IMG/VR virus record: IMGVR_UViG_3300011923_000008
Location: 7,453 to 71,452 of that record
Length of the DNA stretch: 64,000 bases
Source: a virus
Lineage: Duplodnaviria > Caudoviricetes
Reading direction: 5' to 3' (one strand)
Below are positions 9,221 to 42,466 of the stretch, piece by piece (the stretch's first letter is position 1; each line of letters opens with the position of its first letter). The translations under genes and the position numbers were made by a program. The notes under the pieces were generated by a model. That model was not told where the DNA came from and did no database searches. It saw nothing but the letters and a program-made list of their open reading frames with translations.

Positions 9221-9262
9221 ATGCTCGGGCGCAAAGGGGATTGCGTCGAACCCTATACAGGG
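9221..9262 (-). promoter_or_regulatory. Late promoter copy 1 (giant gene), likely leaderless
   Basis: CCCTGTATAGGGTTCG-N20-GAGCAT-N6-ATG(9214). Confidence 0.75.
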
Positions 9263-9294
9263 CCGGCGTTATAGTGGCGGCAGGAGGTAACACA

Positions 9295-9789
9295 ATGTTA
9301 GGCAACACAGCCAAAAAAAGAAATATTTTTATAGCAGCAAACCTAATAGGCATAGTGGCTATAACCTATTTTCATCCGCTGCTTAGAGTGGCGAACTTGC
9401 CGGTCACCGAATGGGCTTATTTGGCATCTCTGCCAATTGCTGCGGCAGCCATCTTTTTCGGGCTCTATGCGCTTGCATTCAGGAAGCGAGCACGCGGCGG
9501 CTGGCCTACCGGATTTTTGGTTTTGGCGTGGCTGTTTGCGTTGTCCAACTTGGCTATGCCTGCGCGCACCACCGAACCCAATCCGGTGCTGCAAGGCCAT
9601 TGGACGCAAGAGAGCACTCGCAGCGCAAGCAAAGGACCATGGCTTGAATTCTCGCCATCTGGTTCACGCTTTTGTCGTGCACCAGATGGCACCATAGTGA
9701 CGGTGTACCCACCAGGCGTGAAGCCAGAAGCCTCGACAGCTGACCCGGCCTGTCTGATTGCCAGTGTGGTCAGTGTCGAGCAGCTGTGA
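9295..9789 (+). CDS. Membrane moron protein, about three TM helices plus C-terminal soluble domain with two Cys
   Basis: AGGAGG SD then ATG 9295 (MLGNTAKKRNIFIAANLIGIVAITY); opposite strand to late genes; stop abuts stop of convergent gene. Confidence 0.8.
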   Translation: MLGNTAKKRNIFIAANLIGIVAITYFHPLLRVANLPVTEWAYLASLPIAAAAIFFGLYALAFRKRARGGWPTGFLVLAWLFALSNLAMPARTTEPNPVLQGHWTQESTRSASKGPWLEFSPSGSRFCRAPDGTIVTVYPPGVKPEASTADPACLIASVVSVEQL

Positions 9790-11793
9790 TTACACCTTTT
9801 CCCAGTTGCCTTGGTCGTTCGGATTGCCGCCCTTGTAACGGTACCCATTGCGGGTATCCCCAATTTTGGGAACGCCTGCGGCTGCTTGCGCTGATGCACC
9901 TGTGTCTGCACGCTCAACCTGCCCTGTCTGGGTGTTGTAACGGTAGATGCTGCCCTCGCTGGTGGAACCATCTGGGTTCTTCGTGGCGGGCGTAACCTGC
10001 ACCTTCCAGGGCGAATCCGCCTGTTTGCCAGACAGATCGCGGATTTGCTGGGCCACGGCTGCTTTCTCCTCTGGGGTCTTGGCAGCGTCGTAGCGCTTGG
10101 CCAAGTCTTCACGGCGCGTCGCATCACGGATGTCAAAACCGCGCACCTGGGTGTCCAGATTCAGACGGCCCTGGTCGACAGCATTTCGAGCGTTCGCGCG
10201 GCCAGTCTCCCCGGTTTCGCGCATGACCGCACGCCCAGTGTCGCCTGCCTCGCGCATTGCGGCAATGCCCGCGCTGGTTTCGTTCTGCATGCTCGTCTGC
10301 GCCAGCGCGGTAGCGTTGCGCTCGGCGGCTTGCTGGGCCTGCGATTCCTGGTTCATCAGTGCCTGGACCCCATTGCGCTGGGCAGCGGTGAGGCCGCGCG
10401 CGCCGGGCACCACCGTGGTCAAGGCGGACATCAGGTCGCTGCGCTCACGTGAGTTCGAGGCCTCCGGGCCAATAACGCCCGACCAGCCCGCTTGGGCACC
10501 TGGGGCAAAGCCGCGAGCGCTCTGCCCGGCTGCAATACGGGCAACGGACTCCTGTTCAGAACGCTGGGCCAGCGCGTCGGCGGCGGCCATGTTTCGTGGC
10601 GACGGAAGGCCGCGCGTCTGTGCACCAGCATTGGCCGCTGCTGGTGAATCGCCATAGCTGTTGCCACTGCGGTAAACGCCCGGCATAACCTGTGCTGCTT
10701 CTGGCGGCGCTGGCGGCACAAACCCCGGCAATCCTGCCACGGTGGGCACCGCATTTGGATTTGCCAGTGGTGGGTTGACAGAGCCCCGGCCAGCACCGGC
10801 GGGCGAAGGAGTGACCCCGGCTGGCAGCGGCTGCTGGCCTGGCACCGGTGGCTTGGCGGCGGCCGCTTGCTGCATGCGCTTTTGATCGGTGAATGGGGTC
10901 ATGCTCGCTGGATCGACACCATCTGGCACGAGCTTGGGGCTCAGGTAGGCCGCATCGAGACCTGCCGCGCGCATGGGGCGAACAACCGCACTGTCATAGG
11001 CGCCGACCAAACCACGCGGCACCATGGTCGCTACGTCGGCGATGGCCCGGCCGGCGTCATTGCTCACATCCTTGACGGTATCCCAGGCCGACCCGATAGC
11101 TGCGCGATCGGCTTGGGCCTGCGGCGATACAGCTGGTGGAGCTGCAGGTGGAGACGCTGCGGTGGCCGCCGCTGCCGCGGGCGCGCCGCTTGCGCCACTG
11201 CCCCCCTGCAGACGGTTGCCTGGGAAAGTGTTGCTTGGGGACGGTGCGGCGGTGGGAGCTGGCAAACCTGCCGGGCGCGGCGCCGGCGCACCAACCTGGG
11301 TGGTGCCGGGTGTGGACACAGCTGCGGCCGAGTCGCCGAAGCTGTTGGCGCGCCGTTTTTCATCGTCGACAAGCCCACCGTCTGCAAAAAACAAAGGCGG
11401 TTCCGGATTCTGGGGCGCGCCCAGCACGCCAGGGGCGAAGCCACGGGCAGTGGTGGGAGTATGAGTCGCGTTCTTGACCTGGTCCAGCGCCTGGACGCCA
11501 ACCGCATGCACCTGCTCGGGTGGCAGCTTGAACTCGCCATTGCTCAGCTGCACTGGCACGCCGCTGCCCTTTTGTGCGGCCTTGGCCGGCACAAAGCCGC
11601 GCGGCGCGCCACCCATAACCTCCAACTGCTGCTCACCCACGGCCTGGGTGCTGTCGGCCGGCATGATGTAGGTTCCATTCGGTACCTCGTCAGCAACCTC
11701 GTCCGAGGTGCCGGTGCCGGGCCCACGCACTGGGCCCCCATTTGCAAATGGTTTTGCGGTTTTGGACTTCGCCGCAGGTTGAAAGCCTCGCAT
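9790..11793 (-). CDS. Internal virion (ejection) protein, 667 aa
   Basis: AGGAGG SD before ATG 11793; GGPVRGPGTGTSD motif, A/P/Q-rich body, C-terminal GYRYKGGNPNDQGNWEKV; sits directly upstream of the giant gene. Confidence 0.75.
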   Translation of the reverse strand: MRGFQPAAKSKTAKPFANGGPVRGPGTGTSDEVADEVPNGTYIMPADSTQAVGEQQLEVMGGAPRGFVPAKAAQKGSGVPVQLSNGEFKLPPEQVHAVGVQALDQVKNATHTPTTARGFAPGVLGAPQNPEPPLFFADGGLVDDEKRRANSFGDSAAAVSTPGTTQVGAPAPRPAGLPAPTAAPSPSNTFPGNRLQGGSGASGAPAAAAATAASPPAAPPAVSPQAQADRAAIGSAWDTVKDVSNDAGRAIADVATMVPRGLVGAYDSAVVRPMRAAGLDAAYLSPKLVPDGVDPASMTPFTDQKRMQQAAAAKPPVPGQQPLPAGVTPSPAGAGRGSVNPPLANPNAVPTVAGLPGFVPPAPPEAAQVMPGVYRSGNSYGDSPAAANAGAQTRGLPSPRNMAAADALAQRSEQESVARIAAGQSARGFAPGAQAGWSGVIGPEASNSRERSDLMSALTTVVPGARGLTAAQRNGVQALMNQESQAQQAAERNATALAQTSMQNETSAGIAAMREAGDTGRAVMRETGETGRANARNAVDQGRLNLDTQVRGFDIRDATRREDLAKRYDAAKTPEEKAAVAQQIRDLSGKQADSPWKVQVTPATKNPDGSTSEGSIYRYNTQTGQVERADTGASAQAAAGVPKIGDTRNGYRYKGGNPNDQGNWEKV

Positions 11794-11820
11794 GGAGCCT
11801 CCTAAATTCAAGTTCTGGAC

Positions 11821-11862
11821 ATTTTTAAGGCCTGGACTGAGACGGCCAAGCCCTATACAGGC
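11821..11862 (-). promoter_or_regulatory. Late promoter copy 2
   Basis: GCCTGTATAGGGCTTG-N20-AAAAAT, followed by a leader with SD. Confidence 0.7.
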
Positions 11863-13761
11863 TCAGTAGCTGTAGCTGTGGGTCGTGCTGGTGCTTGTGC
11901 TCTTGCTTTCGCTGTAGCTGTTGCTATTGCTTCCCGAACCGCTGACGCTGGCCGATACATGCATGGCCGAATAAGCCCCGGCGGCCAGTTGTGCACCCCA
12001 GGTGCCCATGGCCTTGGAGCCCTCCAGTGTGATTTGTGCCTGTTGGTAGGAGCGCTGGGACAGCGCGTTGTAGTGGCCAAGCTTCATTTCCGAGTAGGCA
12101 ATGTTTGTGCGCACGGCCATATCGGCGTACTTGCTCTGCACTTCCGCCTCGGCGATGCCAAGGCTGGTGAGGGCGCGAAAGCCGTCCACCTGGCTGCGGA
12201 AAACCTCTGCGCCATATTGCAGCTGCTGCAGGGATGCGCCAACCTTTTCACGGAACCCGCCCCATTCGGTTTGGTACTTCGCCAGCCAGATCCGTGCCGC
12301 CTCCATCTTGACCTGGGCCCCCTTGAAGCGAATTTCGCTCTTGCTAGCAATGGCGCCGACGGTCGCTGCATACGCTCGCGACTGGGACTCCAGCATGCCC
12401 GCCTTCGCCTCTTCAGCTTTCACTTGGCTACTGTAGGCATCAAACTTCACTTTTTCAGCGCCGATCTGCTCAGCAAATGCCTGAACGTCGGCCCTGTAAG
12501 CGTCAAACTGGTTTTTGATGACATCGGCCTGCACCTGTGCGCCTCGCATCAGGCTGGAGTAAATCTCGGTGGCCGCCTGCACGCCTTGGAACTTGGCCTT
12601 GTAGACCTCGACCTTTTGCTGGTTGAGCTGGCCAATGGTGGCCAGCCCCTCCAGATGGGTCTTGAAGGCCTGCAGTTTCGCCAGCGCACCGTCGAGCTTG
12701 GTGCGGTAGACCTGGGCCAGCGTGCTGAATGCTGCGGTCTTCGCGTTGAACAGGCCAATATGGGCGTTGTACAGGCTGATCTGCGATTCCGCCTCGAAAC
12801 GAGCCATCTCAAACAGCCGCTTGGCGGTGTTCTCGAACAGGTTCTGCAGCAGTTGCTCCAAGGCCATGCCCTGCGTCACAGCGAAGCGCAGATTCTCTAT
12901 CTCCATCTGAGCAGCCTGGACGAAGACTTCGCGGTTGGTTTCCGCCGCTTTAAGTCGGCCCTGCTCGCGGATCACGCTGGCCGCTTTGGTGAGCATGCCT
13001 GGGGGCATGGAGAAGCCGCGGCCTGCCCATACATCCACAGCCTCCTGCACTCCCCGGCTTGTTTCAGCGCTGTCGCGCTCACGCGCCCGAGAAAAAAGGG
13101 CATCCTCAACTGCTGGCGGCAGGCCTGTGCCGCCCTCCATCATTCGCTGAACCTGCGCCACCAAGTCATCCAGCAGTTCAGACTCGTACTTGGGCTCCGA
13201 CCAGTTGATGAACACGTTGGGCACAACAATGCCGTCGGCGTTGGGCGGATTGCCATCGAAATCAGGCAAATCGGGGAAGATGAAATCAGGGACCTTGATC
13301 ACCTCCAAAGCCTCAAGCTCGGGAAGGACGATGCTGGGCGCCTCGGGCATCTCGATGGCTGTGTCGATGCTGGGCCGCTGGGGCGCCGGAATGATGGCCA
13401 TGCTAGGCGCTGCTGGCACGGTGAGCGCCGGCATGGCTGGTGCATCTGGCAGCGCGTCCATGTCGCCGACATCCAAATTGGATAGCAGCGCATCAATGTT
13501 GCGAAGCGTGGGGTCTGACGGCATCGCCAGTACGCTGGGGGAGAAGCTGGGAGCGGCGCCAGCCTTGATCGCCGGTGCTGACAGCACGGGAATATCCAGC
13601 AGCTGCGGATCGGCCACCCCGACCATCCGTACATCCGCAATTTTGCTCATGCTCTCTTCCAAGGCGGCCTGGTGCTCACCGGCCTGGTCCTTGAAATACT
13701 GCATCTTGTCGGTAACTTCCTCGATGGCCGTGGCCATCGCGTTTGGTGCATCGGTAGCCAT
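11863..13761 (-). CDS. Virion structural protein, Pro-rich N-half, coiled-coil C-half, Ser/Thr-rich tail
   Basis: ATG 13761 overlaps upstream stop (TGATG); long clean ORF in tail block. Confidence 0.75.
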   Translation of the reverse strand: MATDAPNAMATAIEEVTDKMQYFKDQAGEHQAALEESMSKIADVRMVGVADPQLLDIPVLSAPAIKAGAAPSFSPSVLAMPSDPTLRNIDALLSNLDVGDMDALPDAPAMPALTVPAAPSMAIIPAPQRPSIDTAIEMPEAPSIVLPELEALEVIKVPDFIFPDLPDFDGNPPNADGIVVPNVFINWSEPKYESELLDDLVAQVQRMMEGGTGLPPAVEDALFSRARERDSAETSRGVQEAVDVWAGRGFSMPPGMLTKAASVIREQGRLKAAETNREVFVQAAQMEIENLRFAVTQGMALEQLLQNLFENTAKRLFEMARFEAESQISLYNAHIGLFNAKTAAFSTLAQVYRTKLDGALAKLQAFKTHLEGLATIGQLNQQKVEVYKAKFQGVQAATEIYSSLMRGAQVQADVIKNQFDAYRADVQAFAEQIGAEKVKFDAYSSQVKAEEAKAGMLESQSRAYAATVGAIASKSEIRFKGAQVKMEAARIWLAKYQTEWGGFREKVGASLQQLQYGAEVFRSQVDGFRALTSLGIAEAEVQSKYADMAVRTNIAYSEMKLGHYNALSQRSYQQAQITLEGSKAMGTWGAQLAAGAYSAMHVSASVSGSGSNSNSYSESKSTSTSTTHSYSY

Positions 13762-14921
13762 CAGATACTCCTTTTGCTGACGAGTGCCAGCACTTTCCAA
13801 TCATTGATATAGGCACTGCTGCCCGTCAGGCGCAGGGTGTAAGCAAAGTGGCGGCCGAGCAGTCCTCTGCCAAACTCGAACCGTGCGTTGGTAAGGGCAT
13901 CAGCCACTGGCCGGCCCTTGAGTGGGTAGGTGTAGGTGACCGGCCTGCCCGACTGCGTCTGGGTCACGCCCATGGTCGCGGTGCCTGCGAGCTGATATTC
14001 AATGTGCGACTCGACCGGCAGGCCCAGGTTCTGGCCCGTCATGTCAATGAGGCCCGTGCGAACTTCTGCCACCATCTGCTCACCACCACCATCCAGGGCG
14101 TAGACGCCATCGAGCGTGGTGGCATATAGCGCCCCATCGATAACAGCCAAACCGTTGACGCCGAAAGGTGCCCATCGGCTCATTGCCATGTTATTCAGGT
14201 GCGCTGTCCATGCCTGGCCCAGAATCACGCCAGGTGTGAGCACCTCGTCGTCTGCGCTGGCCCAGTCTTCAACCAGCTGAACAGCGTGCAGGTGGTCGAC
14301 AACTTCATCCACAGCGATGGCGCTATCAACCACCAGAAACACAGCCGGCCTTACCCCGCCTAGCACCAAATCGCTCGCGACGGCAATGTCTTCAACCAAC
14401 GAAACGATGCGGGCTCGGCCAAGGACTTCATCACCAGCAGTGGCGCTGTCAGTCACCAGGTCGGAGAAGATGACAAATGCGCGATCACTGGCAACAGCTT
14501 TGTCGCTCACCAGTTGGACGACGGTACGCTGGGCGATCACTTCGTCACTGGCCGTGGCCGTATCGGTGATCAGCGTGAGGGTGGTCCCCAGCACCTCATC
14601 GCTGGGAATGACAGTGTCTTCAATCAGGGTGCGCAGAATCCCAACCACTTGGTCGCCTGCTACCGCGCTATCCACCAGCAAGGTGACGGCATGCAAGGTC
14701 TGCAGGCATTCATCGCTTGCGACAGCGACATCTGCTATCAAGGTGACTGTCTTTTCCAGCACCTGATCGCTGGCCGTGGCGCTGTCCGTGACGAGGAAGC
14801 CCACTGTCGTGAACACCTGGTCGCTGGCAATGGTGCGGTCGTCTATAACGCTGTAGAGCCGGATAAAAACACTGTCGGTAACAATGGCCGTGTCTTGAAG
14901 GTCATCGCGGTATTCACTCAT
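13761..14921 (-). CDS. Tail protein with about 12 tandem D-x-A-x-A-S-D-x-V repeats
   Basis: 386-aa ORF coupled to neighbours; repeats such as LVTDSATASDQV, LITDTATASDEV. Confidence 0.8.
   Translation of the reverse strand: MSEYRDDLQDTAIVTDSVFIRLYSVIDDRTIASDQVFTTVGFLVTDSATASDQVLEKTVTLIADVAVASDECLQTLHAVTLLVDSAVAGDQVVGILRTLIEDTVIPSDEVLGTTLTLITDTATASDEVIAQRTVVQLVSDKAVASDRAFVIFSDLVTDSATAGDEVLGRARIVSLVEDIAVASDLVLGGVRPAVFLVVDSAIAVDEVVDHLHAVQLVEDWASADDEVLTPGVILGQAWTAHLNNMAMSRWAPFGVNGLAVIDGALYATTLDGVYALDGGGEQMVAEVRTGLIDMTGQNLGLPVESHIEYQLAGTATMGVTQTQSGRPVTYTYPLKGRPVADALTNARFEFGRGLLGRHFAYTLRLTGSSAYINDWKVLALVSKRSI
14250..14900 (-). repeat. Tandem 18-21 aa coding repeats
   Basis: Recurring L(I/V)xDxAxASDxV units in the translation; boundaries approximate. 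Confidence 0.75.
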
Positions 14922-17460: not shown

Positions 17461-17463
17461 CGC

Positions 17464-18060: not shown

Positions 18061-18114
18061 GGGAACTCCTTGGTGGTTGAACCAAGGCGCACTCATGCGC
18101 GCCGAATTGAGAAC

Positions 18115-19317
18115 TCAGGATACAGCGGTGGTCAGCCGACCTCCAAACACTATGCTGTGCGCGGTAGCCCCCTTGATGCCTTGGAGCCGCAGAGCGTGTT
18201 TCTCGACCACAGACCCATCTGGGGTTCCGAGAACATAGCCGTTATCAGCCAGCCAGACGCAGGCCGCCCCTCCGCCGCCAGCGATTTCCCCAGCTTCTTC
18301 CGCTTTGAGAGCGATCGCGCTGCCAGGCACTGGCGCCCGGGATGTCTTGCGGATCATTTCCAGCCCGTCTGGCGTTGAGCCAGCGAGAAATGCCACATGG
18401 TCGACCTGGCCTACCCATATCCCACCATCGACAGGCATCACAAACGTGATGCGCTGCGGCATTTGAACGAAGTCATGGCGTGGGTCATGGAGGTGGTACG
18501 CGAGCGCCTGCGAAAAGCGCAAAACATTAGAAGTGGCCGTCAATAGCCGCCCCCGCCACAGCCCCAGGTAGCGACCGGTTCGCATGGGCATCATGTGGGC
18601 GAACATAGCCGCGCGCCCCAGGCCTGACGTGCTGGAAATATCCAAATCCAGACGCGAGACTGGCAAATCTTCCAATCGCCGCAGCTCGCCACCATTGTGG
18701 CTGGTGCAGTAGACGCGCGTTGTGACGACAGACGCATCCATGCACAACGGCAGCACCAGGGATAGACCACCGCCATCAGGCACCTTCAATTCAGAGGCAG
18801 ATGACATACCAGACTCGGTACCGTCCTCTCGCACCCACGCAATGGCTACGCTGTATTGGCCGCTGACCAGCGCCCCCGTACCTGAGCTAACCATGGGTGG
18901 TGGTGGCGTCTCTATGGTCAGCGGCTGGGCGCTCTTGCCGTTGAACCGGAAGATACCGGCAGGCCCAGCCACCACCACCACATTGTTCAGAACGATGTGG
19001 CCGGGCGGATAGGCATCGCCCAGCTTCGCCAGCAACTCGCAACTCCAGTTTTTGGGGTCAACCTTCACCCAGTCCTCACCCAGCATCCCGAACACGTCGC
19101 GGTGAACAGGACTTTGCCAAAGCCCAGATAGCGGTTGGCTGGTTGCCCGCCGCAGGCCTGGCCGCATGCTCAGGCGGCCGGTTTCACTGATCGAAACGTT
19201 CAAGGCTTCCCGAACATAGAGCCGCCGATACTCGCCACCTACCTGCAGGGCATCATCGCGGGCCGAGGCGTTATCGATGCCTGCAAGGGGCATCATGGGA
19301 TAGGGTTTGGTTGCCAT
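18115..19317 (-). CDS. Tail protein, 400 aa (propeller/nozzle-like, inferred)
   Basis: Clean ORF in tail block; starts at upstream stop. Confidence 0.7.
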   Translation of the reverse strand: MATKPYPMMPLAGIDNASARDDALQVGGEYRRLYVREALNVSISETGRLSMRPGLRRATSQPLSGLWQSPVHRDVFGMLGEDWVKVDPKNWSCELLAKLGDAYPPGHIVLNNVVVVAGPAGIFRFNGKSAQPLTIETPPPPMVSSGTGALVSGQYSVAIAWVREDGTESGMSSASELKVPDGGGLSLVLPLCMDASVVTTRVYCTSHNGGELRRLEDLPVSRLDLDISSTSGLGRAAMFAHMMPMRTGRYLGLWRGRLLTATSNVLRFSQALAYHLHDPRHDFVQMPQRITFVMPVDGGIWVGQVDHVAFLAGSTPDGLEMIRKTSRAPVPGSAIALKAEEAGEIAGGGGAACVWLADNGYVLGTPDGSVVEKHALRLQGIKGATAHSIVFGGRLTTAVS

Positions 19318-24466: not shown

Positions 24467-24874
24467 TCACACCCGAAAAATCTTGTTGACCCCGTTGTCC
24501 CAGGTCACGATGATGTCGCCCCCGTTGGGAGTGATTGGCAGGCCGGTAGCCGTGTCGATGTAAGCGATCAACGGGCTGGTGGCTTCGGTGCCGGTGTCCT
24601 TGAAGATCACGATGGCGTTGATCGTGGCCCCCGATACCGATGTGAACGTGCAATCCGCACCATCTGCAGCCCCACCGGTGGTGGCCTTGCCCGTCAGCGT
24701 CACAATCTGGCTAATTCGGGAAGACACCGGCACGTCAGCCAGGTACTGGTGCACCGCAGTCTGCGGCGTGTAAGCGCTGGTACTGACAAGCACGACCTTG
24801 ATCGTGTCCGTCATCCAGTTGATCTGAGCTTCTAAGAATCGCTGACGGGCCGCGTCGTACAAGGTGTTGGCCAT
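24467..24874 (-). CDS. Phage structural protein, 135 aa
   Basis: MANTLYD...DTIKV...PNGGDIIVTWDNG type sequence seen in phage tail blocks; AAGGAG SD. Confidence 0.75.
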   Translation of the reverse strand: MANTLYDAARQRFLEAQINWMTDTIKVVLVSTSAYTPQTAVHQYLADVPVSSRISQIVTLTGKATTGGAADGADCTFTSVSGATINAIVIFKDTGTEATSPLIAYIDTATGLPITPNGGDIIVTWDNGVNKIFRV

Positions 24875-25083
24875 GCGTGCTCCTTGCCTTGTTCAGGCGA
24901 AGAAGCGCACTCCAGCGCGCCAGGGGTTGAAATAGGTGGTCGGCGGATGCGGACAGCTGGTGGCGCATCGATTCGCAGATGAGCCGCCTGGCCGTGTTTC
25001 TTCACCAGCGACACTCGCGTATCGCCAATGGTCAGCGACTGGCCAAGGCTCAGATCTACATACAAGGTGGTTTTACCGCTCAT
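24832..25083 (-). CDS. CsrA/RsmA-like protein, 83 aa
   Basis: LYVDLSLGQSLTIGD-TRVSLVKKHGQAAHLRIDAPPAVRIRR aligns nearly gap-free with CsrA [43 protein letters not shown]. Confidence 0.7.
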   Translation of the reverse strand: MSGKTTLYVDLSLGQSLTIGDTRVSLVKKHGQAAHLRIDAPPAVRIRRPPISTPGALECASSPEQGKEHAWPTPCTTRPVSDS

Positions 25084-25090
25084 GCCTGCA

Positions 25091-25132
25091 AGTGTTCCAG
25101 CAAGTGCCGTGCGGGGCGAACCCTACGCGGGG
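25091..25132 (-). promoter_or_regulatory. Late promoter copy 3 (tail operon), likely leaderless
   Basis: CCCCGCGTAGGGTTCG-N20-AACACT-N7-ATG(25083). Confidence 0.75.
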
Positions 25133-25191
25133 GCGACTGACTTTGCTATGCTGTAACAGGCTTGATACAGTTTTCCAGGAAAGGGATGGGG

Positions 25192-26038: not shown

Positions 26039-26090
26039 CTCTTGGTCGAGAGGTCGCAGCGGTTAATCCATAAGCACCTTGGAGCAAGAC

Positions 26091-26765
26091 ATGCAGAATT
26101 CCCTCGCCTTCTCGGCGCCCACTGAACATTCCACCTTCAACTTCGGCAATCACCCCGTTCGCATTGTCATGCGCGCTGAAGAGCCATGGTTTGTGGCTTC
26201 CGACATTTGCGCAGCATTGGGATACGCAAACACGAGCAAAGCTGTAGCTGACCACCTTGATGCAGATGAGCGGTCTAACGAACAGTTAGACCGGTCCCGG
26301 ATGGGCAGCAAGTCTGTGATCATCAATGAATCGGGACTATATGCTTTGGTACTTCGAAGCCGCAAGCCCGAGGCCAGAAGGTTTGCCAAGTGGGTGACCG
26401 GCGAAGTCCTGCCAAGCATCCGCAAAACTGGGCAATACGTAAAGGCTGGGCACGCTCTGTCGCCGCAAGAAATGGTGGCCGCCTTGGTTAAGCATATCGA
26501 GGCTCCGAACAGCGTGCCAACCATCGAATTTATGCCTTTGGTTAACGCAGTGCTCCGGAAACAAGGTTTCGATTTGAGCCCCGCTTCCATGTCACCAGAG
26601 CAGGCAACTGCGATCACCGACAGGATCAACAGCCTGGCCAAGCTATTTCACCCGCTCTCACCTCAATTTGCTGACGTGCTTGGCATTCGTCGCGCGATGA
26701 GAGGTCTCCATCCCAAATTCGGGACCAGGGAGCCTGGATATAGCCAACTCCTTGCTGCTCTGTAA
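26091..26765 (+). CDS. Bro-N domain antirepressor
   Basis: VRIVMRAEEPWFVASDICAALG...INESGLYALVLRSRKPEARRFAKWVTGEVLPSIRKTGQY; GGAG SD. Confidence 0.92.
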   Translation: MQNSLAFSAPTEHSTFNFGNHPVRIVMRAEEPWFVASDICAALGYANTSKAVADHLDADERSNEQLDRSRMGSKSVIINESGLYALVLRSRKPEARRFAKWVTGEVLPSIRKTGQYVKAGHALSPQEMVAALVKHIEAPNSVPTIEFMPLVNAVLRKQGFDLSPASMSPEQATAITDRINSLAKLFHPLSPQFADVLGIRRAMRGLHPKFGTREPGYSQLLAAL

Positions 26766-28158: not shown

Positions 28159-28353
28159 TCATGCCCGAGACCGTTCTTCAACCATCTGCCTCAAAGATGC
28201 CTCGAGTCGCTCAGCCATCGGATCTTTCCTGAGATGCTCGGTATAGACAGTTGTACAGGCCAGACGCGATGTGACGACCCTTCGAAATAGGTTGGGCCAT
28301 GGGCGAGCGACGGTGCCCGCCTTTGGCGCGAATGGTTGCATCTCAGTTGCCAT
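28159..28353 (-). CDS. Small late protein, 64 aa
   Basis: Has its own copy of the late promoter with the same ATG spacing as terS and csrA-like genes. Confidence 0.6.
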   Translation of the reverse strand: MATEMQPFAPKAGTVARPWPNLFRRVVTSRLACTTVYTEHLRKDPMAERLEASLRQMVEERSRA

Positions 28354-28360
28354 GCCCCCC

Positions 28361-28402
28361 AGTGTTCCGGGAGCGGCTGCCTCAGTCGAACCCTACACGG
28401 GG
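28361..28402 (-). promoter_or_regulatory. Late promoter copy 4, likely leaderless
   Basis: CCCCGTGTAGGGTTCG-N20-AACACT-N7-ATG(28353). Confidence 0.75.
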
Positions 28403-28407
28403 GCATG

Positions 28408-28428
28408 AAAAAACCCGCCGGAGCGGGT
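28408..28428 (-). terminator. Intrinsic terminator after HEPN gene
   Basis: ACCCGC-TCCG-GCGGGT-T6 on minus strand. Confidence 0.75.
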
Positions 28429-32314: not shown

Positions 32315-33702
32315 TGCTTCCTCCGCACCGAGCCGTCAGCGGTCTTGAAATAGGAGCCCGAAGGCAGAGCTTGGTAAGCGGCCGCGTCAGACGCCACCGG
32401 TAGATACTTCATGTTCAGGTCCTCGACCGTCTTCATGGCCGCCTTGCGCTGATCGACTGGAATGGTGGGATCGCCGATCTGACCAGCCATTTCACGATAT
32501 AGCAGCACATCCTTGTCGGACTGTGGGCCGGACATCTTGGGCATCTTCGACACCAAAGCACCTTGGAGGGCCTTAAGCTGGGCCGCCGACTGAGCCCCAT
32601 CCGTGGACACCCCAAAAGCACGCGCCACTTGATCGGCTGCCGCCCCAGCGTAGCTACCTGTTGCAGTGTCCAGAAGCGGCCGGGCCTGGTCGAGTATCGA
32701 GAACACGTCCTGCGTGTCCTTCGTCTGCTGCAACCCCTCTTTGCTCGCAGCAGGATCCGCCGGGCCACCAGGAATGGCCTGCAAGTTGCCGTTGGGCAGC
32801 GCGCGGTAACCTGTTGGCGCCGCCTTGGCTGCCGTGGCGCGCAGCTCGGCTTCTTGTATGCCACCTAGCGTTTGCAGCAGGGAGCGCTGATTTGCACCCG
32901 TTTCCTGGGCCTGTGTACGCGCCATCGCATCCTGGCCCGCCATTTGGGCCTGGCTCAGGTCTGTCATGCTGGAAAGCCGCGAACGCGCGTCGGCACCCTG
33001 CTCTCGCATTGCCGACTGCTGTATATCGACATTGCCCTGGAGTGCAGCTTGGTCCAAACGCGGCTGAGCCTCTTGCAAGGCTGCATCAATGGCCAGGGCC
33101 GACCGATAAGCGCGCACTGCCGGATTACCTTCAGCACCCCGGCCACCCCAGCGGCTGGTGTTGGTGATGCTGCTTGCCGAAGTCGCCAGGTTCTCCAGTT
33201 GCTTACGCGCTGAATAGTCGTTGGTGCTATTGGATACTTGCGGCGTATCCATTTGCGGAATGTTCAAGGATGCGGGTGGCGCTGCCATGGGATTTGCCGG
33301 TGGCCGTCCCAACTGCGTCGGGGATTGCGGCATAGGCGGCGGACTCGCACCCAGATAACCGCCCCCTGCGCTCGCGCCATTGATAGATACATTGCCACCC
33401 ACGTTCCCGCCGCTGTAGGAATTCCCATCACGGTTGATGTTGGACATCATTGCCGCGGCAGATTGGGGTGCTGGAGCAGCACTCAAAGACTGCGCAGGAG
33501 GTTGAATCGATGCGGCGACGCGTGAAAGCGGTCCGGCTGCCAGGGCCGCCGATGGTCGCGCTTGCACGTTGGGATTGCTTTGGACTGCCGCTGCGTCACC
33601 GAACGAATTGGCAGCGGGTGGCTGAGCCGCAGGAGCTGCACCAGGTAGTTGGCTGAGCAGATCTTGTGCACGTCCACGCTGTGTGGGGTCAACGGTTGCC
33701 AT
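32311..33702 (-). CDS. Internal virion (ejection) protein, 463 aa
   Basis: A/Q/P-rich; C-terminal YQALPSGSYFKTADGSVRRKQ. Confidence 0.75.
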   Translation of the reverse strand: MATVDPTQRGRAQDLLSQLPGAAPAAQPPAANSFGDAAAVQSNPNVQARPSAALAAGPLSRVAASIQPPAQSLSAAPAPQSAAAMMSNINRDGNSYSGGNVGGNVSINGASAGGGYLGASPPPMPQSPTQLGRPPANPMAAPPASLNIPQMDTPQVSNSTNDYSARKQLENLATSASSITNTSRWGGRGAEGNPAVRAYRSALAIDAALQEAQPRLDQAALQGNVDIQQSAMREQGADARSRLSSMTDLSQAQMAGQDAMARTQAQETGANQRSLLQTLGGIQEAELRATAAKAAPTGYRALPNGNLQAIPGGPADPAASKEGLQQTKDTQDVFSILDQARPLLDTATGSYAGAAADQVARAFGVSTDGAQSAAQLKALQGALVSKMPKMSGPQSDKDVLLYREMAGQIGDPTIPVDQRKAAMKTVEDLNMKYLPVASDAAAYQALPSGSYFKTADGSVRRKQ

Positions 33703-33732
33703 TGATAGGGCCTTTCACTTGAGACTGATGCA

Positions 33733-33774
33733 AGTCTCCCAGTGCAAAGGCCTTCAGCCAATCCCTAGCGGGTG
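33733..33774 (-). promoter_or_regulatory. Late promoter copy 5
   Basis: CACCCGCTAGGGATTG-N20-GAGACT, followed by a leader. Confidence 0.6.
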
Positions 33775-33777
33775 GCT

Positions 33778-34434: not shown

Positions 34435-34443
34435 GGTGCAGCC

Positions 34444-34830: not shown

Positions 34831-34845
34831 GGTGATTCATCTTTC

Positions 34846-34876
34846 AAAAGACCCGGCAGGTTTGACGCTGCCGGGT
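34846..34876 (-). terminator. Hairpin after capsid/decoration genes
   Basis: ACCCGGCAG-N8-CTGCCGGGT followed by CTTTT on minus strand. Confidence 0.55.
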
Positions 34877-34910
34877 GAAAGGCCTTAACGGCCCGACCAC
34901 TGAGACAAAC

Positions 34911-35312: not shown

Positions 35313-35379
35313 GATCAGCTCCTATCAACAACAAGGGAAAAAGGATGGCAGGGCACCCTGGCCCTGCCCTGGAGGCTGC

Positions 35380-36480: not shown

Positions 36481-36643
36481 TGCATGCTCCAAATAAGTGG
36501 TTACTTGTTCGGGACATGCGCCGCCCTATTGCGAAGTGCATGGCATGGGCTGCCAAGGGGCCAGGCCTTTTACGTCGGCCAGCAGACGAGGTGCACCCTG
36601 TTTGAACCAGCAGGCCGGGTGAGCGCCTGCTGTGGTTTGGTTA

Positions 36644-37717: not shown

Positions 37718-37753
37718 GGTTCAGTCCTCTCAGTGGTCTATGTAAATGGGTGC

Positions 37754-37945
37754 TCAGTTCTTGCCGCCGCTCTGGAGCGCCTGCAGGGCGCCCAGCTCAG
37801 CCATCTTTTCCTTGGCCTTGCCGAGCGCTGCCTTCAGCCGGGCCGGGTCCTTGCGGATTTCTTCGGCGCGCGCCAGGGTGCGCATGTCGTCTTCTGCTTG
37901 CCAGTCGCGCTCAGAACTGGCCACGGCAATATCTTTCTTCGCCAT
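37754..37945 (-). CDS. Small head-region protein, 63 aa
   Basis: AAGGAG SD; WQAEDDMRTLARAEEIRKDPARLKAA. Confidence 0.75.
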   Translation of the reverse strand: MAKKDIAVASSERDWQAEDDMRTLARAEEIRKDPARLKAALGKAKEKMAELGALQALQSGGKN

Positions 37946-37955
37946 ATCGGCTCCT

Positions 37956-40112
37956 TCAAAGTTGCAGGCCGTCTGGCCCAGGGGTTTTGATGCCGGCCAT
38001 CAAGCCGACGCCGGGATTGGCTGGAAGCACAGGGTTCGTGTTCTGCGCAGCACCTGGTGGCAGCACCGGCTCAGCAATTGCGGCCGCGCCGCCAGCTGCA
38101 GGGTCTGCAGTGGCCGCCATGCCAGAGGCAGCAGGCACAATCGGCGCCGCGTCATGGTCCACATAGCCAGCGGATCCCAGCAGGCCATCGGCCGTCGTGG
38201 CGGTGCCCGGCGTCATCTCGATGATCTGCGCCGTCTGAACTGCGCTGTATTGCGTCTCGACGTTCGTGCCGATAGCTCTGTTGTCGGACAGGCGGGCGTC
38301 TGCCTTGGCCTTGATCGCCTGCGCAGCCATGAGATCGGCCTTGGCCTGCAGCGTCGGATCGACAGGCGCCTGGCTTGACTGCATGGCTTCCAGGATCTCC
38401 GACTTGTCGGCCAGGTTGGAGTAGCGGATGACGGTGGCATCAGGCAACCGCACGCCGGCATTGCGCATTTCCATGACCTGCTGGAACTGGCTGTTCTCAA
38501 AGGTGACCTGCATTGGCTGCTCGGAAATCACCACGTCATAGGTGCCCACGGTCACATCGTTGATGTAGTCACCCGTCGCAGGATCAAACTTGTTGATCTC
38601 CAACACTTCGTCCGTTGGCTTGCCACTCAGTGGATCCATCTCCGTGATGCGGAAGATGCGGTAACTGTCGTAGTAGCGCTGGATCAGCTTGGTGATCCGC
38701 GTGGCCAGCAGATGCCGGGTATAGGCCAGGTTGTCGAGGGGCACTGCCAGCTGCTGCTGGCTGGCGAACTGCTTGGACTGGATGGCGATGCCCGAGATCT
38801 CCGGACCTTGGCTGCCGCGCATCGCGTCGGGCACGGTCACGTCCTTGAGCGCCTTGTCTGCGCGGTCGATGATGCGATCGATGCCGGTAGGCACCTGGTT
38901 GGGGCCAATCTTCTTGGGTGGTTTGCTTTCCTTCTTGTACTCGATGACCAGGCCCGTCTGCGCGCCGACATTCTCCAGTTCCTCGGTGTCCATGTTGGAC
39001 AGCGAATCTTGCTCCACCATCCAGCCGCCATTGGCCGAGCTGTTGAGGATGTGGATGAACTGGCTCACCGCTTTGTTCAAGACTTCTTGCGGGCCAATGG
39101 CGCTATCAACCATGCCGCGCGTTTTGCCGCGTCGGAAATAAGCGAAGTACGGGACGATCGTGAAGTGGTCATAAGGACTGTAGTCCTCATGCAGCGTACG
39201 GCACCAAGTGCTCACGATCCAACGAATACGCTTGCGCATGCGCTTTGCGCGCACCGCCCCCTTGGCCAGAGCATCTGCTTTCGAATCGTCCGCCATGGTG
39301 GACTCGACCAGCACATCGCCAGTGGTGGGGTGCACCAGGCACGGGGTGAGCTCATAGACAAACTGCTGCCGCTCGATCACGCGGTAGCGCTTGAAGCCCT
39401 GCTCGTCAGTGCGGTAGGCGTCGTAGAGGCTGGCCTGGCTGAACATGCCGAACTTGCTGCGCTCGGCCTCGTCATCGAAGTCACCGAAGTCCGGCCCCTC
39501 GTCGTTGCTCGACTCCGCCTCGGTCCGAGCGGCCTTACCGTAGCGCTGCTCAATCTCATCTAGCGTCAGCCAGCGCGTCACCAGCACATCGCCCCAGTCG
39601 TCTGGGTCGTAGCTCTTGGCATCCGGGTCCGGGATCACGTCCAGCGGATCCAGGGTATCAATGGTCACCTCACCCAGGATGTTGCTCTCAAAATCCATGC
39701 GCAGGTCGAAGTAGCCACGCTGCGCGATCAGGCCGTCGCTGAATACCTGAGTCTCCATCCAATGCAGGTTGGTCGAATCCGTCACCTGCTTGACCAGCTT
39801 GGTCAGGATCGTGGCCTTATCGAGGTCGGCCTGGCCGCCGCGCGGCTTGTAGACGATGTCCATGCGGTTGTGGATTTGGTAGCCCACGGCTGAATTGATC
39901 GAGGGCTGCACCTCGTTGAACTCGTAGCATGGCCGGCCCTGCTCCTGCAGCACAGCACGATCCACCGCGCTCCACTGCTCACCGCCGCCCAGGTACATGC
40001 CCTCGCACCGGTTGGCATGTTCCATGAATTGAGTGTGGCCACGGTCCTTGCCGTAGAGGTAGCGGGCCCAGTTCTCTCGCGCCTTGTCGTTGTCTTGTGC
40101 CATGGTGTTCAT
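37956..40112 (-). CDS. Portal protein, P22-like
   Basis: 718 aa after terL; YLGGGEQW, GRPCYEFNEVQPSIN, DPDAKSYDPDDW, SGIAIQSKQ. Confidence 0.9.
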   Translation of the reverse strand: MNTMAQDNDKARENWARYLYGKDRGHTQFMEHANRCEGMYLGGGEQWSAVDRAVLQEQGRPCYEFNEVQPSINSAVGYQIHNRMDIVYKPRGGQADLDKATILTKLVKQVTDSTNLHWMETQVFSDGLIAQRGYFDLRMDFESNILGEVTIDTLDPLDVIPDPDAKSYDPDDWGDVLVTRWLTLDEIEQRYGKAARTEAESSNDEGPDFGDFDDEAERSKFGMFSQASLYDAYRTDEQGFKRYRVIERQQFVYELTPCLVHPTTGDVLVESTMADDSKADALAKGAVRAKRMRKRIRWIVSTWCRTLHEDYSPYDHFTIVPYFAYFRRGKTRGMVDSAIGPQEVLNKAVSQFIHILNSSANGGWMVEQDSLSNMDTEELENVGAQTGLVIEYKKESKPPKKIGPNQVPTGIDRIIDRADKALKDVTVPDAMRGSQGPEISGIAIQSKQFASQQQLAVPLDNLAYTRHLLATRITKLIQRYYDSYRIFRITEMDPLSGKPTDEVLEINKFDPATGDYINDVTVGTYDVVISEQPMQVTFENSQFQQVMEMRNAGVRLPDATVIRYSNLADKSEILEAMQSSQAPVDPTLQAKADLMAAQAIKAKADARLSDNRAIGTNVETQYSAVQTAQIIEMTPGTATTADGLLGSAGYVDHDAAPIVPAASGMAATADPAAGGAAAIAEPVLPPGAAQNTNPVLPANPGVGLMAGIKTPGPDGLQL

Positions 40113-41677
40113 GCGGCCTGAGCCGATCCTCGTTTGCGCTGGCTGATGCCCAGGCGATCACGCCATGAGCGTTCCTTCTTCGCCTGCTTTGGGGTGGGGA
40201 TGTTGGAGACAAAGGTCATGGCCACGCAGTCGCCCTTGTCCGGGCTGCGGCCCAGCGCCTCGCGGATCTCGTCCTTGCTGCGCACCTGGATGGCGGCCTT
40301 CTGCCCCATGGTCACCACCTTGTAGCGGACGGCGCACAGGTCGGCGGCAAGCTCTGGGTCAGGCGGCAGAGCCACGGGATCTGGGTTTAGAGGGTCCAAG
40401 GCTTCACGCATGCGCCAGTACATCTCAGCGCGCTTGTTGCGAAAGCGCAGCTGGCCGGCCTTGTCCATGAGCTCGCTCGAGTTGGAGCCAACAACGGACA
40501 GCACCAGCAGATTGAGCCCCACCAGGAAGTCCAGCGCGCTCGAGCCAATGCCGATACCGTCCACGCAGATGCACGCGCCGTTGCGCACCAGGGGCACCAC
40601 GAAGCCTGCTGCCTTGGGGCCGTCATTGGTCACGATGCCCGGCACGGTCACAAGGTGATCAAACCAATTGCCATAGCGCGGGGCGGCGCTGGATTTGTCG
40701 ATGCCGCCGCGCGCGGGGTCGAAGCCGAGAGCGGTCATTTGGCCCTTGGCATCCCTGGGCTTCCAGCGGGCCTGCGCTGCCTTCACCCATTCGGTCGGAA
40801 TCAGCTGCCAGGCAGGGTCAGCCGCGCCGGCGTTGAAATCCCCGCGCAGCATCTGGGAGCGCAGGGGCTCGGGCAGCGCCTGCAGCTTGGCCTTGTAGCC
40901 AGTGGCTGCCAGGAACAGGTTGTCATCCACGCTCGACGGGATGAATGTGCGGCTCTGGGGTCTGACCAGTTCGCCCCCCATCATCACGGGCTCTGGCCCG
41001 TCGGTCTCCTGGTCCTCGCCCTTTTCGTTGGTGAAATACCAGCGCAGCTCTCCCGGCTTGGCAGGGTTGCCGTGGTTGGGGTCCAGCCATGGCGCCCAAA
41101 AGCGCTTCACCCACTCGCCCTCCGGCTCGGTGGGGGGATTGCCCGCGCAAACCACGCGCTGGCGCACCTTGGGGTTGTCCGTGCGCAACCAGCCGATCAG
41201 CGTGCGGAACTGCATTTCTGTGAAGTGGCAGATCTCGTCGAACAGCTTGGCGTCGTGCGGGCGGCCCTGGTACTTGATCCAATCGCCTGCGTCCTTCACG
41301 CTGCCCAGCTCCAGGATCCGCTTGCCAGGCAGACGCCAGACACCGTCCTGGCTGTTGTAGCCCTTGCGGGTGCCGATGATCTTGGCCATGCGCTCTTCGA
41401 TACCCACCAGCTGCACGGCTTCGCGCCGGAAGATGATGCTGTGCTCTTGGGAGGTAAGCGACAGCCCCAGCAGCAGATCGGTCTTGCCGCCGCCGGCCGA
41501 GCCGCCGTAGAAGACGATGTCCGCTGGCGAGTTGTAGGCGCTCAGCTGTGGGCCATCCTGCGGCACCCAGATCGGTGCACCTTCGGCCAACAACAGCTTG
41601 TCCAGCTCCCGCTTGAGGTCGGCAGGCATGGCCTTCACCATCTCCAACATTTCAGCAGTGGATGGAGCCTTGCTCAT
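40109..41677 (-). CDS. terL: Terminase large subunit
   Basis: Walker A FYGGSAGGGKT, Walker B LFDE, coupling motif GNPP, nuclease GFDPARGG and PDKGD. Confidence 0.95.
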   Translation of the reverse strand: MSKAPSTAEMLEMVKAMPADLKRELDKLLLAEGAPIWVPQDGPQLSAYNSPADIVFYGGSAGGGKTDLLLGLSLTSQEHSIIFRREAVQLVGIEERMAKIIGTRKGYNSQDGVWRLPGKRILELGSVKDAGDWIKYQGRPHDAKLFDEICHFTEMQFRTLIGWLRTDNPKVRQRVVCAGNPPTEPEGEWVKRFWAPWLDPNHGNPAKPGELRWYFTNEKGEDQETDGPEPVMMGGELVRPQSRTFIPSSVDDNLFLAATGYKAKLQALPEPLRSQMLRGDFNAGAADPAWQLIPTEWVKAAQARWKPRDAKGQMTALGFDPARGGIDKSSAAPRYGNWFDHLVTVPGIVTNDGPKAAGFVVPLVRNGACICVDGIGIGSSALDFLVGLNLLVLSVVGSNSSELMDKAGQLRFRNKRAEMYWRMREALDPLNPDPVALPPDPELAADLCAVRYKVVTMGQKAAIQVRSKDEIREALGRSPDKGDCVAMTFVSNIPTPKQAKKERSWRDRLGISQRKRGSAQAA

Positions 41678-42417
41678 GCGGCTGCACCTCCAGTGATGGC
41701 AGCCAAGGCGCCGGGGTTGGCTGCCAAAATCCTGGCCATGCGCACAGCCCGCTCTGCATCTGTCAGCTCGCGCCCACCCAACTGGCCCGGCATGTCGCCG
41801 CCCTCGGCATCATCTTTGATGCCCCAGGCCTGACGCTCGAGTCCAACCAGCAGGCGCAGGGATTCAGCCAGAGAGCGCATGGTGCTGGAGCGGCCAGCCA
41901 GGCTCATTGCGCGGTTCATTCCATCCAGAAGCTTGGACCGTGCCGCGCTGCTCAGCTGTTCGCCGGCCGGGCGCTCGGCCAGCGCCTGCTCGATTTCCTC
42001 GAAGAGTTCGGGTCGCGTGGTCTGGAGCTCAAGCTCCTCCAGCAGGGACAGGCACAGGCTGCGGGCCCGCTGAATGTCGCGGCGCTGACCCAGGCGCACA
42101 TCTGCCACAGCCTGTGCATTGCCGTCGATCACCAGCTTCTCAGCCGCCCGAGCCTCTTTGGATACCTCGCTGGATACCGCCGCTTTGGATACCAGCGCTT
42201 CCGCCTTCGCGTGGATCTTCTGGGTGAGGTCGCGCTCCCAGCCATCACGCTTTGCACGCTTGTTGATGGCCCCATGGGTGATGTCGTGCTCATCGGCGAT
42301 CTGGCGCAGCGTCTTGATGCCCGCCCGGTAGTCCAGCTCAATGCGCTCCCAGTCCACAGCCTGGCGTGCAGGCGCGAGGTTTTGTTTGCTGTCGGTCGAT
42401 GTCTTGGGCGTGGTCAT
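41674..42417 (-). CDS. terS: Terminase small subunit
   Basis: VDWERIELDYRAGIKTLRQIADEHDITHGAINKRAKRDGWERD HTH; ATGA overlap with terL. Confidence 0.88.
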   Translation of the reverse strand: MTTPKTSTDSKQNLAPARQAVDWERIELDYRAGIKTLRQIADEHDITHGAINKRAKRDGWERDLTQKIHAKAEALVSKAAVSSEVSKEARAAEKLVIDGNAQAVADVRLGQRRDIQRARSLCLSLLEELELQTTRPELFEEIEQALAERPAGEQLSSAARSKLLDGMNRAMSLAGRSSTMRSLAESLRLLVGLERQAWGIKDDAEGGDMPGQLGGRELTDAERAVRMARILAANPGALAAITGGAAA

Positions 42418-42424
42418 TGAACGA

Positions 42425-42466
42425 ATGATCCATGCCGGGCTCCCCCAGGTCGAACCCTATCGGGGG
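42425..42466 (-). promoter_or_regulatory. Late promoter copy 6 (terminase/head operon), likely leaderless
   Basis: CCCCCGATAGGGTTCG-N20-GATCAT-N7-ATG(42417). Confidence 0.75.

Follow-up and report, generated by a model that had tools for sequence, protein, structure and literature searches.

Introduction

Control of several late operons by one phage protein acting at a conserved upstream site is known for Ogr of P2, Delta of P4 and B of 186, all of them Cys4 zinc-finger proteins, and the P2 Ogr-type sites are centred near -55. In phage lambda, the late genes are turned on by Q, a delayed-early product encoded directly before terS, which acts as an antiterminator at a single promoter (PR'). 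The lambda cI mRNA made from PRM is leaderless, starting at the A of AUG, and this promoter needs an activator beside its -35 region. Leaderless genes are unusual outside actinobacteria, Deinococcus-Thermus and archaea, and we know of no description of the Mu late genes as leaderless. Promoters dependent on Mu C have a -10 but no -35 hexamer, and the C site, which is centred at -43.5 and forms an imperfect dyad of 16 bp, overlaps the -35 region (PMC2582627). Ltr proteins, the sole phage factor that late transcription needs, attach to DNA immediately upstream of terS (PMC3753634).

Here we describe a putative late regulon in a 64,000-nucleotide stretch of a viral record (IMGVR_UViG_3300011923_000008), hereafter the window, which belongs to a Comamonas prophage with kinship to Pseudomonas phage F116. 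F116 is a classic phage for generalised transduction in P. aeruginosa, and prophages related to it are widespread in Pseudomonas and Comamonadaceae. Literature searches on phage AP1, on Hollowayvirus, on the motif and on the late promoters of F116 gave us no description of the late switch of F116-like phages.

A close parallel is with the four Mu C/Mor late promoters (Plys, PI, PP, Pmom), since in both cases several late promoters have a -10 without a -35 element; the box in the window covers approximately -50 to -34. However, its sequence differs from that of the Mu C site, and our candidate activator, a 173-aa protein, has no Pfam Mor match. Judging from the structural model, its domain order would also be reversed, with a winged helix at the N terminus and a long helix at the C terminus, whereas Mor and C have an N-terminal dimerisation domain followed by a C-terminal HTH. 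The candidate shares the map position of lambda Q, last in a nin-like region and directly before terS, and is likewise proposed to be a delayed-early product that turns on the late genes, but it would serve seven promoters without -35 elements in place of one, and it lacks a Q-family domain. The proposed arrangement of one phage protein, several late operons and a conserved upstream site is that of Ogr, Delta and B, whose sites lie further upstream and whose zinc fingers contrast with a winged-helix protein containing a single Cys and no Pfam match. Members of the Ltr super-family (RinA, LtrC, ArpU and others) belong to phages of Gram-positive bacteria and use one repeat region upstream of terS, whereas the hosts here are Proteobacteria, the seven boxes are dispersed and the 173-aa protein has no sequence family in common with them. 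Finally, a leaderless geometry confined in lambda cI to a single lysogeny gene is found here at the first gene of most late operons and throughout a phage lineage. A late regulon dependent on an activator is a known kind; what appears to be new is the protein family and the systematically leaderless first genes.

Results

The pattern CC[CT]G-N1-3-TAGGG-N-T[CT]G has exactly six matches in the window, all on the minus (late) strand, compared with a chance expectation of 0.077 and a maximum of 2 in 300 Markov shuffles. The exact TAGGGTTCG occurs four times where 0.13 is expected. All six boxes listed in the first-pass annotation are present at the coordinates it gave, each between minus-strand genes (Table 1). 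They share one layout, in which a C-tract is followed by 2-3 bases, TAGGGTTCG or a close variant, exactly 20 nt and an nAnnnT hexamer, and the constant spacer and hexamer that had been claimed are indeed found at six sites out of six. An ATG follows the hexamer closely at four of them (7 nt on at 42417, 28353 and 25083, 6 nt on at 9214), again as previously noted, while the remaining two have leaders of about 20 nt, the hexamer-to-ATG gap being 30 nt for ATG 33702, which is preceded by GAAAGG, and 27 nt for ATG 11793, which is preceded by AGGAGG. The motif is not equally frequent inside genes or on the other strand: elsewhere in the window there are just two weaker core-only matches, at 19301 (+) and 31729 (-), both intragenic and both without C-tract and hexamer. 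A consensus scan of the late strand gave no consensus sigma70 (TTGACA-type) promoter coincident with any of the six sites. The sequence 'GGAAC' also invites a sigma54 or ECF reading, which was dropped because an ATG comes immediately afterwards and the GG-to-GC distance does not suit a -24/-12 promoter.

Two descriptions of the motif had to be revised. The box had been called a quasi-palindrome, and although CCC-N5-GGG arms exist, the rest of it (TA, TTCG) is asymmetric, leaving the palindrome weak. The division of the late genes into six units is right for the window but not for the whole provirus, which has seven; the seventh site (L118, G000:C1:2803, minus strand) has the same geometry and lies ahead of a holin-like gene just outside the left window edge, so that an ATG at leaderless spacing is found at five of seven provirus sites. 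The unit of promoter 4 continues after its CsrA-like gene with the remaining F116-like virion and tail genes down to 11863. As suggested earlier, inverted genes do lie between late units: a plus-strand block at ~25.2-28.1 kb, with an antirepressor gene in it, separates two of them. Terminator-like hairpins are also seen inside the late region, for example at 35347-35368 after the capsid gene.

Table 1. Proposed promoters, regulatory genes and terminator-like element in the window; the first coordinate of each box is its core start
Feature	Position	Strand	Parts	Basis or remark
Late promoter 1, terS/terL/portal/capsid unit	42415..42466	-	C-tract + TAGGGTTCG 42451-42466; GATCAT 42425-42430; ATG 42415-42417, 7 nt on; no SD	pattern match; terS by phrog_1206
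Late promoter 2, 463-aa and 806-aa genes	33700..33775	-	TAGGGATTG 33759-33767, C-tract to 33775; GAGACT 33733-33738; ~20-nt leader, GAAAGG, ATG 33702	pattern match
Late promoter 3, 64-aa gene of no known family	28351..28403	-	box 28387-28395; AACACT 28361-28366; ATG 28353, 7 nt on	pattern match
Intrinsic terminator-like hairpin stem	28413..28428	-		T-run abuts promoter 3, closes preceding unit
Late promoter 4, CsrA-like first gene	25081..25133	-	box 25117-25125; AACACT 25091-25096; ATG 25083, 7 nt on	phrog_8397 CsrA-like; phrog_8040 Hc3
Late promoter 5, ~667-aa gene	11791..11863	-	TAGGGCTTG 11847-11855; AAAAAT 11821-11826; ~20-nt leader, AGGAGG, ATG 11793	pattern match; phrog_11341
Late promoter 6, giant gene of ~4621 codons	9212..9263	-	box 9247-9255; GAGCAT 9221-9226; ATG 9214, 6 nt on	pattern match; gene runs past left window edge
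Candidate late activator, 173 aa	42492..43013	-		phrog_8117; last gene of early-right operon
Antirepressor gene	26079-26765	+		within plus-strand block
CI-type repressor, HTH + S24 peptidase	49128..49847	+		domain match

The same arrangement is conserved in relatives. Acidovorax phage AP1 has four sites, each consisting of box, 20 nt, hexamer, 7 nt and ATG, and Pseudomonas phage F116 has the same layout with a spacing of 19-21 nt, one site lying directly after gene p37 and before terS and two more in late intergenic gaps. Together with about 60 non-redundant sites of this layout from IMG/VR and genome loci, the two phages back every element of the activator-driven late regulon that the first-pass annotation had proposed, as far as comparison of sequences can. 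We also examined an unbiased set of 44 non-redundant CC..TAGGG.T sites. An nAnnnT hexamer stands exactly 20 nt from the box in 36 of these 44, against a background of 3.3% per position, and in 29 of the 36 an ATG lies 5-8 nt past the hexamer, with a mode of 7. AACACT is the commonest hexamer across sites, and the aligned sites show no conserved -35 or activator site upstream of the C-tract. The sequence features expected of a class II sigma70-type promoter are those observed, namely a putative -10 at fixed distance and a conserved box over approximately -50 to -34 with no TTGACA-type -35. Comamonas sp. PR12 harbours a near-identical prophage at about 663-705 kb of NZ_CP104377.1. The composite motif occurs four times in this prophage and once elsewhere in 5.1 Mb, a confinement that marks it as a phage regulon; a host regulon was dropped as an explanation on the same counts.

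No Q-like gene had been recognised previously, and there is indeed no Q homologue, but a regulator candidate in the Q position had been missed. The early-right operon (O-like, DnaB, RuvC-like, NinB etc.) is on the minus strand and ends at the gene for the 173-aa protein, the last early gene before terS, which is the position of lambda Q in a lambdoid layout fixed here by the CI-type repressor. The gene is flanked by terS and a phrog_1588 gene. In an AF2 model of the protein (pLDDT 85), residues ~12-69 form an N-terminal winged helix-turn-helix, 79-101 a small beta unit and 102-172 a long helix at the C terminus, and Foldseek against the PDB matches the winged helix to the DNA-binding domains of DtxR/IdeR, IclR and GntR, a generic similarity with E ~1e-2. 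The sequence matches phrog_8117 (E=1e-39, residues 7-154) and F116p37 (30% identity over 83% of the protein, tblastn), and its family comprises 495 clusters at 50% identity (E<=1e-3). It has no Pfam (E<=0.01), NCBIfam or named PHROG match, and a profile search of PDB sequences returned just coiled-coil noise from C/EBP. None of the ORFs tested contains a sigma or RNA polymerase domain.

This protein is the only non-structural one common to the window and AP1, where its homologue is encoded 2.3 kb before terS; in Pseudomonas phage 8P the homologous gene does not adjoin terS. We then compared how protein and box are distributed over 53 non-redundant terS loci that have 3 kb or more of upstream sequence and are not phylogenetically independent of one another. 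Both are present in 34, so that the two occur together in dozens of related phages, and neither is present in 14; two loci have the protein only, with variant boxes missed by the regex, and three (L053, L076, L083) the box only, with no detectable homologue within 4 kb upstream. The 173-aa protein is the best candidate for the late activator, and we infer from these comparisons that it most likely binds the box and activates the promoters.

The promoters could be real and activator-dependent and yet be bound by another factor. The 173-aa protein might then confer packaging specificity together with terS, serve as an AbiEi-like antitoxin or repressor, be an early regulator or have some other role. 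Such a combination would accommodate the three box-only loci and the separation of the gene from terS in AP1 and phage 8P, and an AbiEi role is suggested by some database records that name homologues 'putative AbiEi antitoxin' and by the atlas, where 11% of the proteins in a neighbouring cluster carry AbiEi_4. However, no second non-structural protein is common to the window and AP1, the association of 34 loci with both and 14 with neither against 5 mixed ones argues for the 173-aa protein, and the host genome lacks a regulon of such sites. Furthermore, the AbiEi similarity is confined to the generic winged helix, and there is neither an AbiEi_4 Pfam match nor an adjacent toxin gene. Taken jointly, we therefore regard another factor and another role as unlikely.

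The box-associated ATGs open real ORFs, mostly terS, with conserved N-termini (M-T/S-T/S-P). When the spacing is modal, translation in the same frame would meet a stop at the TAG of the box, which makes a longer reading frame impossible. Ribosome binding was assessed by anti-SD duplex energies in place of regex motif counts, the latter being confounded because GG followed by GAGACT reads GGGAG. The mean energy over the 20 nt upstream was -3.6 kcal/mol compared with -3.35 kcal/mol for the sites' own shuffles, in agreement with the earlier statement that the leaderless sites have no SD, whereas several terS relatives without the box have a GGAG- or GAGG-type SD instead. With an ATG at the predicted +1 and no SD, these genes would belong, on sequence grounds, to the leaderless mRNA class, and both RNA start sites at the ATG and leaderless translation are predicted. 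Counting against the leaderless reading, efficient leaderless translation has to our knowledge not been established for Comamonadaceae or Pseudomonas. In the subgroup with GG and GAGACT-type hexamers, the GGGAG 9 nt before the ATG could act as an SD.

Alternatively, TAGGGT itself might be the -10 element (T-12, A-11, T-7), with transcription starting ~7 nt further on and leaders of ~28 nt, in which case we would be dealing with leadered genes, and the second hexamer would form part of an unusual ribosome-binding region. TAGGGT does fit TAnnnT and so agrees with the -10 consensus at its three most conserved positions. The second hexamer, for its part, occupies -13 to -8 relative to the ATG, the expected place of an SD, and its GGGAGA-type versions resemble one. 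We nevertheless consider this improbable, since overall anti-SD complementarity is not above that of shuffles, the commonest hexamer, AACACT, is not SD-like, and the hexamer, with its A and T invariant at a separation of four bases and its spacing to the box fixed at 20 nt, bears the hallmark of a -10 rather than of an SD. In addition, the GGG core would be a poor melting region, and TAGGGT as a -10 would be left without a conserved -35 or activator site upstream of the C-tract.

Discussion

We consider it probable that the boxes belong to activator-dependent late promoters used by the host sigma70-type polymerase, with the 173-aa protein as the likely activator and with leaderless first genes. 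According to this model, the polymerase would read the six promoters of the window and the seventh outside it through a -10 hexamer that keeps A-11 and T-7 only, usually with a G just upstream, and no -35 element. The ~17-bp box, C-tract-N2-3-TAGGGTTCG, at about -50 to -34 and centred near -43, would stand in for the -35, and the phage protein bound to it may recruit or remodel polymerase by class II activation, as at Mu C-dependent promoters. Itself subject to CI control, the activator would be the final product expressed from the early-right operon. At four of the six window promoters (five of the seven in the provirus), the preferred start, 7-8 nt after the hexamer at a purine following a pyrimidine, would be the first base of the ATG, and the predicted leaderless first genes are terS, the 64-aa gene, the CsrA-like gene, the giant gene and the holin-like gene. 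That the 173-aa protein is instead a Q-like antiterminator, loaded at the box and acting by read-through of terminators with no effect on initiation, would suit its gene's Q position and the hairpins of the late region (e.g., 35347-35368) but is very improbable, because each of seven promoters has its own box, promoters without a -35 need help at initiation, no Q family is matched in Pfam, and the sigma-dependent pause that Q uses in the initial transcribed region would here fall inside coding sequence.

The analysis yields a cis element that can be put to the test, F116p37 / phrog_8117 as a candidate regulator, and corrected terS starts. Should the start sites be borne out, leaderless genes would open most of the late operons in a proteobacterial phage lineage, which would provide a natural system for leaderless translation at high expression, as well as a compact promoter/activator pair, independent of host regulators, that could be used as a tool.

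It is tempting to speculate, and we do so tentatively, that the leaderless design is a gate, such that translation of the late first genes requires the winged-helix activator to fire their promoter. Lacking an SD, first genes such as terS, holin and the giant injected protein would be translatable only from RNAs that begin at AUG, and transcripts that run into them from units further upstream, or from the prophage early operon, would be translationally silent. If so, the ~500-cluster unannotated family would constitute a new class of late activators in proteobacterial phages with start-gated translation. An inverted repeat that may strengthen the block, and would fold only in read-through RNA, flanks the -10 hexamer on both sides, with its end 0-2 nt ahead of the ATG; it is compensatory and is found at 15 of 62 sites, compared with 3.1 expected.

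Geometry and Conservation of the Predicted Late Promoter Sites

The first-pass annotation had described six late promoters of identical geometry, and its pattern has six matches in the window against 0.077 expected from shuffles. All six lie on the minus strand in short gaps between minus-strand genes, with none inside genes or on the other strand, and the exact sequence TAGGGTTCG is present four times (0.13 expected). On the minus strand, each site consists of a C-tract, 2-3 bases and TAGGG(T/C/A)T(C/T)G (together, the box), then exactly 20 nt and an nAnnnT hexamer. The four closely following ATGs noted previously lie 6-7 nt past the hexamer as described, and the other two genes have short leaders (see table). 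In a consensus scan, none of the six sites coincided with an ordinary sigma70 promoter. The count of six holds within the window, but to its left is a seventh site of matching geometry; the first gene after this site encodes a 110-aa holin-like membrane protein (P0074), and the giant gene, of about 4621 codons, ends at the TAG of the site's box.

The geometry recurs in related phages and prophages, including dozens of further sites from loci retrieved via terS and via the 173-aa protein discussed below. Acidovorax phage AP1 (OM049504.1), the only cultured phage recovered as a relative by megablast, has four late-strand boxes; they precede terS, two structural units and the holin, and in each case 20 nt, the hexamer, 7 nt and ATG follow. 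In Pseudomonas phage F116 (NC_006552.1), gene p37 is followed directly by TAAGGTTCG, 19 nt, GACAAT, 8 nt and ATG, and two further C-tract/TAGGGTT boxes lie in late intergenic gaps. Variant boxes (CAGGGTTCG, CAGAGTTCG, TAAGGTTCG) retain the geometry, and the more distant phages Pseudoalteromonas Y7 and 'Dartukuta' carry recognisable TA(G/A)(G/A)GTT boxes upstream of terS. In the chromosome of Comamonas sp. PR12, which carries a near-identical prophage, the composite motif is essentially prophage-only. At two boxes conserved between distant loci (L017 17346 and L020 16333, plus strand) GTGATAT replaces the usual hexamer, with a spacing of 21-22 nt and a longer leader; these boxes may form a variant promoter class.

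Among 44 non-redundant CC..TAGGG.T sites, selected without presupposing the hexamer, 36 match nAnnnT exactly 20 nt away (background 3.3% per position), and in 29 of these 36 an ATG follows 5-8 nt beyond, most often at 7. The predicted ATGs start genuine ORFs, with N-terminal conservation from residue one. Where the spacing is the modal 7 nt (e.g., window 42457-42459(-)), the box supplies an in-frame TAG 13 sense codons before the ATG, which rules out an upstream start. Predicted and deposited starts differ for first late genes of AP1 (18338 versus 18320, 41633 versus 41612, 45292 versus 45283) and for F116 terS (22776 versus 22851); there the promoter-linked ATG lies 25 codons in frame upstream, and the gene is probably longer than annotated by that amount.

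Coordinates of promoter-linked starts and other features (late promoters numbered from terS leftwards)
Feature	Position	Strand	Remarks
ATG, terS	42417	-	7 nt after hexamer
ATG	33702	-	leader ~20 nt with GAAAGG
ATG, 64-aa gene	28353	-	7 nt after hexamer
ATG, CsrA-like gene	25083	-	7 nt after hexamer
ATG	11793	-	leader ~20 nt with AGGAGG
ATG, giant gene	9214	-	6 nt after hexamer
Seventh late promoter	L118 (G000:C1, provirus sequence) 2759-2812	-	4.6 kb left of window; gccccggta TAGGGTTAG, 20 nt, AAAACT, 7 nt, ATG
Inverted repeat	window 9212-9235; L118 2762-2790	-	ends 0-2 nt before ATG; also at many related loci
Candidate activator gene	42492-43013	-	last early gene, 25 nt upstream of first box
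CI repressor	49128-49847	+	HTH and S24 peptidase
Early-right operon		-	order: O-like initiator, DnaB, RuvC-like resolvase, NinB, two small genes
Late genes	from 42417 leftwards	-	terS, terL, portal, major head protein, head-closure Hc3, CsrA-like gene
Early-left arm			recombination genes and integrase
Block with antirepressor gene	about 25.2-28.1 kb; antirepressor 26079-26765	+	splits late strand between promoters 3 and 4
Terminator-like hairpin	28413-28428	-	adjoins promoter 3

Promoter Reading and Predicted Leaderless Starts

We read the hexamer as a -10 element, whose hallmark is an invariant A with an invariant T four bases further on. Start-site choice prefers a purine 7-8 nt past the hexamer, preceded by a pyrimidine, and by these established rules transcription is predicted to start at the A of ATG in ...GGC ATG. 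With this A as +1, the hexamer occupies -13 to -8 and the box -50 to -34, the position at which phage Mu C binds at late promoters with a -10 but lacking a -35 element (PMC2582627). The main alternative takes TAGGGT as the -10 and assigns the second hexamer to a ribosome-binding site. It draws on the match of TAGGGT to TAnnnT, but fails because Shine-Dalgarno (SD) complementarity is missing, the 20-nt spacing is fixed and nothing is conserved further upstream. Across the site set, anti-SD pairing energy of the 20 nt preceding the ATGs was -3.6 kcal/mol versus -3.35 for their own shuffles, no SD signal above the shuffled level, in line with the lack of an SD that the first-pass annotation had noted at four of its sites; several terS relatives without a box have a GGAG- or GAGG-type SD. 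The predicted leaderless first genes are, on sequence criteria, an unusual and consistent feature. No treatment of late promoters of F116 or its relatives was found in the literature searched, which did not include the first description of the F116 genome by Byrne and Kropinski (2005).

An inverted repeat flanks the hexamer in about a quarter of sites, with a perfect stem of 5 bp or more in 15 of 62 non-redundant sites against 3.1 expected from permuted partners. The stem sequences vary between phages with compensatory changes, indicating selection for pairing. As the 3' arm stops immediately short of the ATG, it would be missing from a leaderless transcript and present in read-through RNA, which prompts the tentative and rather doubtful idea that first late genes without an SD might be translated only from RNA starting at their AUG, the repeat folding in read-through RNA.

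A Candidate Late Activator

No Q-family profile match was obtained, in keeping with the earlier failure to recognise a Q-like gene, but a candidate activator was found at the position of such a gene in lambda. This 173-aa protein matches phrog_8117 (function unknown) and no Pfam or NCBIfam entry. In its AlphaFold model (pLDDT 85), a winged helix-turn-helix at the N-terminus is followed by a beta unit of three strands and a helix of 70 residues, and its best Foldseek matches, with weak E-values, are DNA-binding domains of DtxR/IdeR, IclR and GntR regulators. It is the sole non-structural protein common to the window and AP1 (E<1e-5), and its F116 homologue, F116p37, has the same map position. 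In a set of 53 non-redundant terS loci, each with 3 kb or more of sequence upstream and not phylogenetically independent of one another, 34 have both homologue and box, 14 neither, 3 only the box and 2 only the homologue (variant boxes missed by the regex). The family comprises 495 clusters at 50% identity (E<=1e-3), nearly all of 150-200 aa, and no name for it was found in the sources searched. We propose the protein as a putative box-binding late activator.

Mu C and Mor are closest in function to the predicted system, and the candidate's gene position recalls that of lambda Q and, in phages of Gram-positive bacteria, that of the Ltr proteins (PMC3753634). However, the domain order in the model is the reverse of that in Mor/C, and the protein would act at seven promoters, whereas lambda Q acts at one. 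These differences, the lack of a zinc finger and the absence of a profile match place it outside all three families. As judged from sequence comparison, the regulatory logic is familiar, and the protein family and box appear new.

Prophage Organization

The IMG/VR provirus, a lambdoid prophage whose virion genes are F116-like, is 71.5 kb long, the window being its right-hand 64 kb. The late region also holds several function-unknown PHROGs known from phages of the same type, and no sigma or RNA polymerase domain was found in any tested ORF. The plus-strand antirepressor block bears out the earlier suggestion that inverted genes are interposed between late units. Within late unit 1, a strong terminator-like hairpin (35347-35368(-)) lies directly 3' of the major head gene and is possibly an attenuator setting the ratio of capsid to downstream products. 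The ~530-nt gap (9262-9789) that separates promoter 6 from the end of the 673-aa gene contains only overlapping ORFs on both strands, with no gene assignable. The CsrA-like gene (24832-25083(-)) is the first gene of the longest late unit and is predicted to be leaderless; like its CsrA-like counterpart in F116 (F116p47), it is embedded in the virion module.
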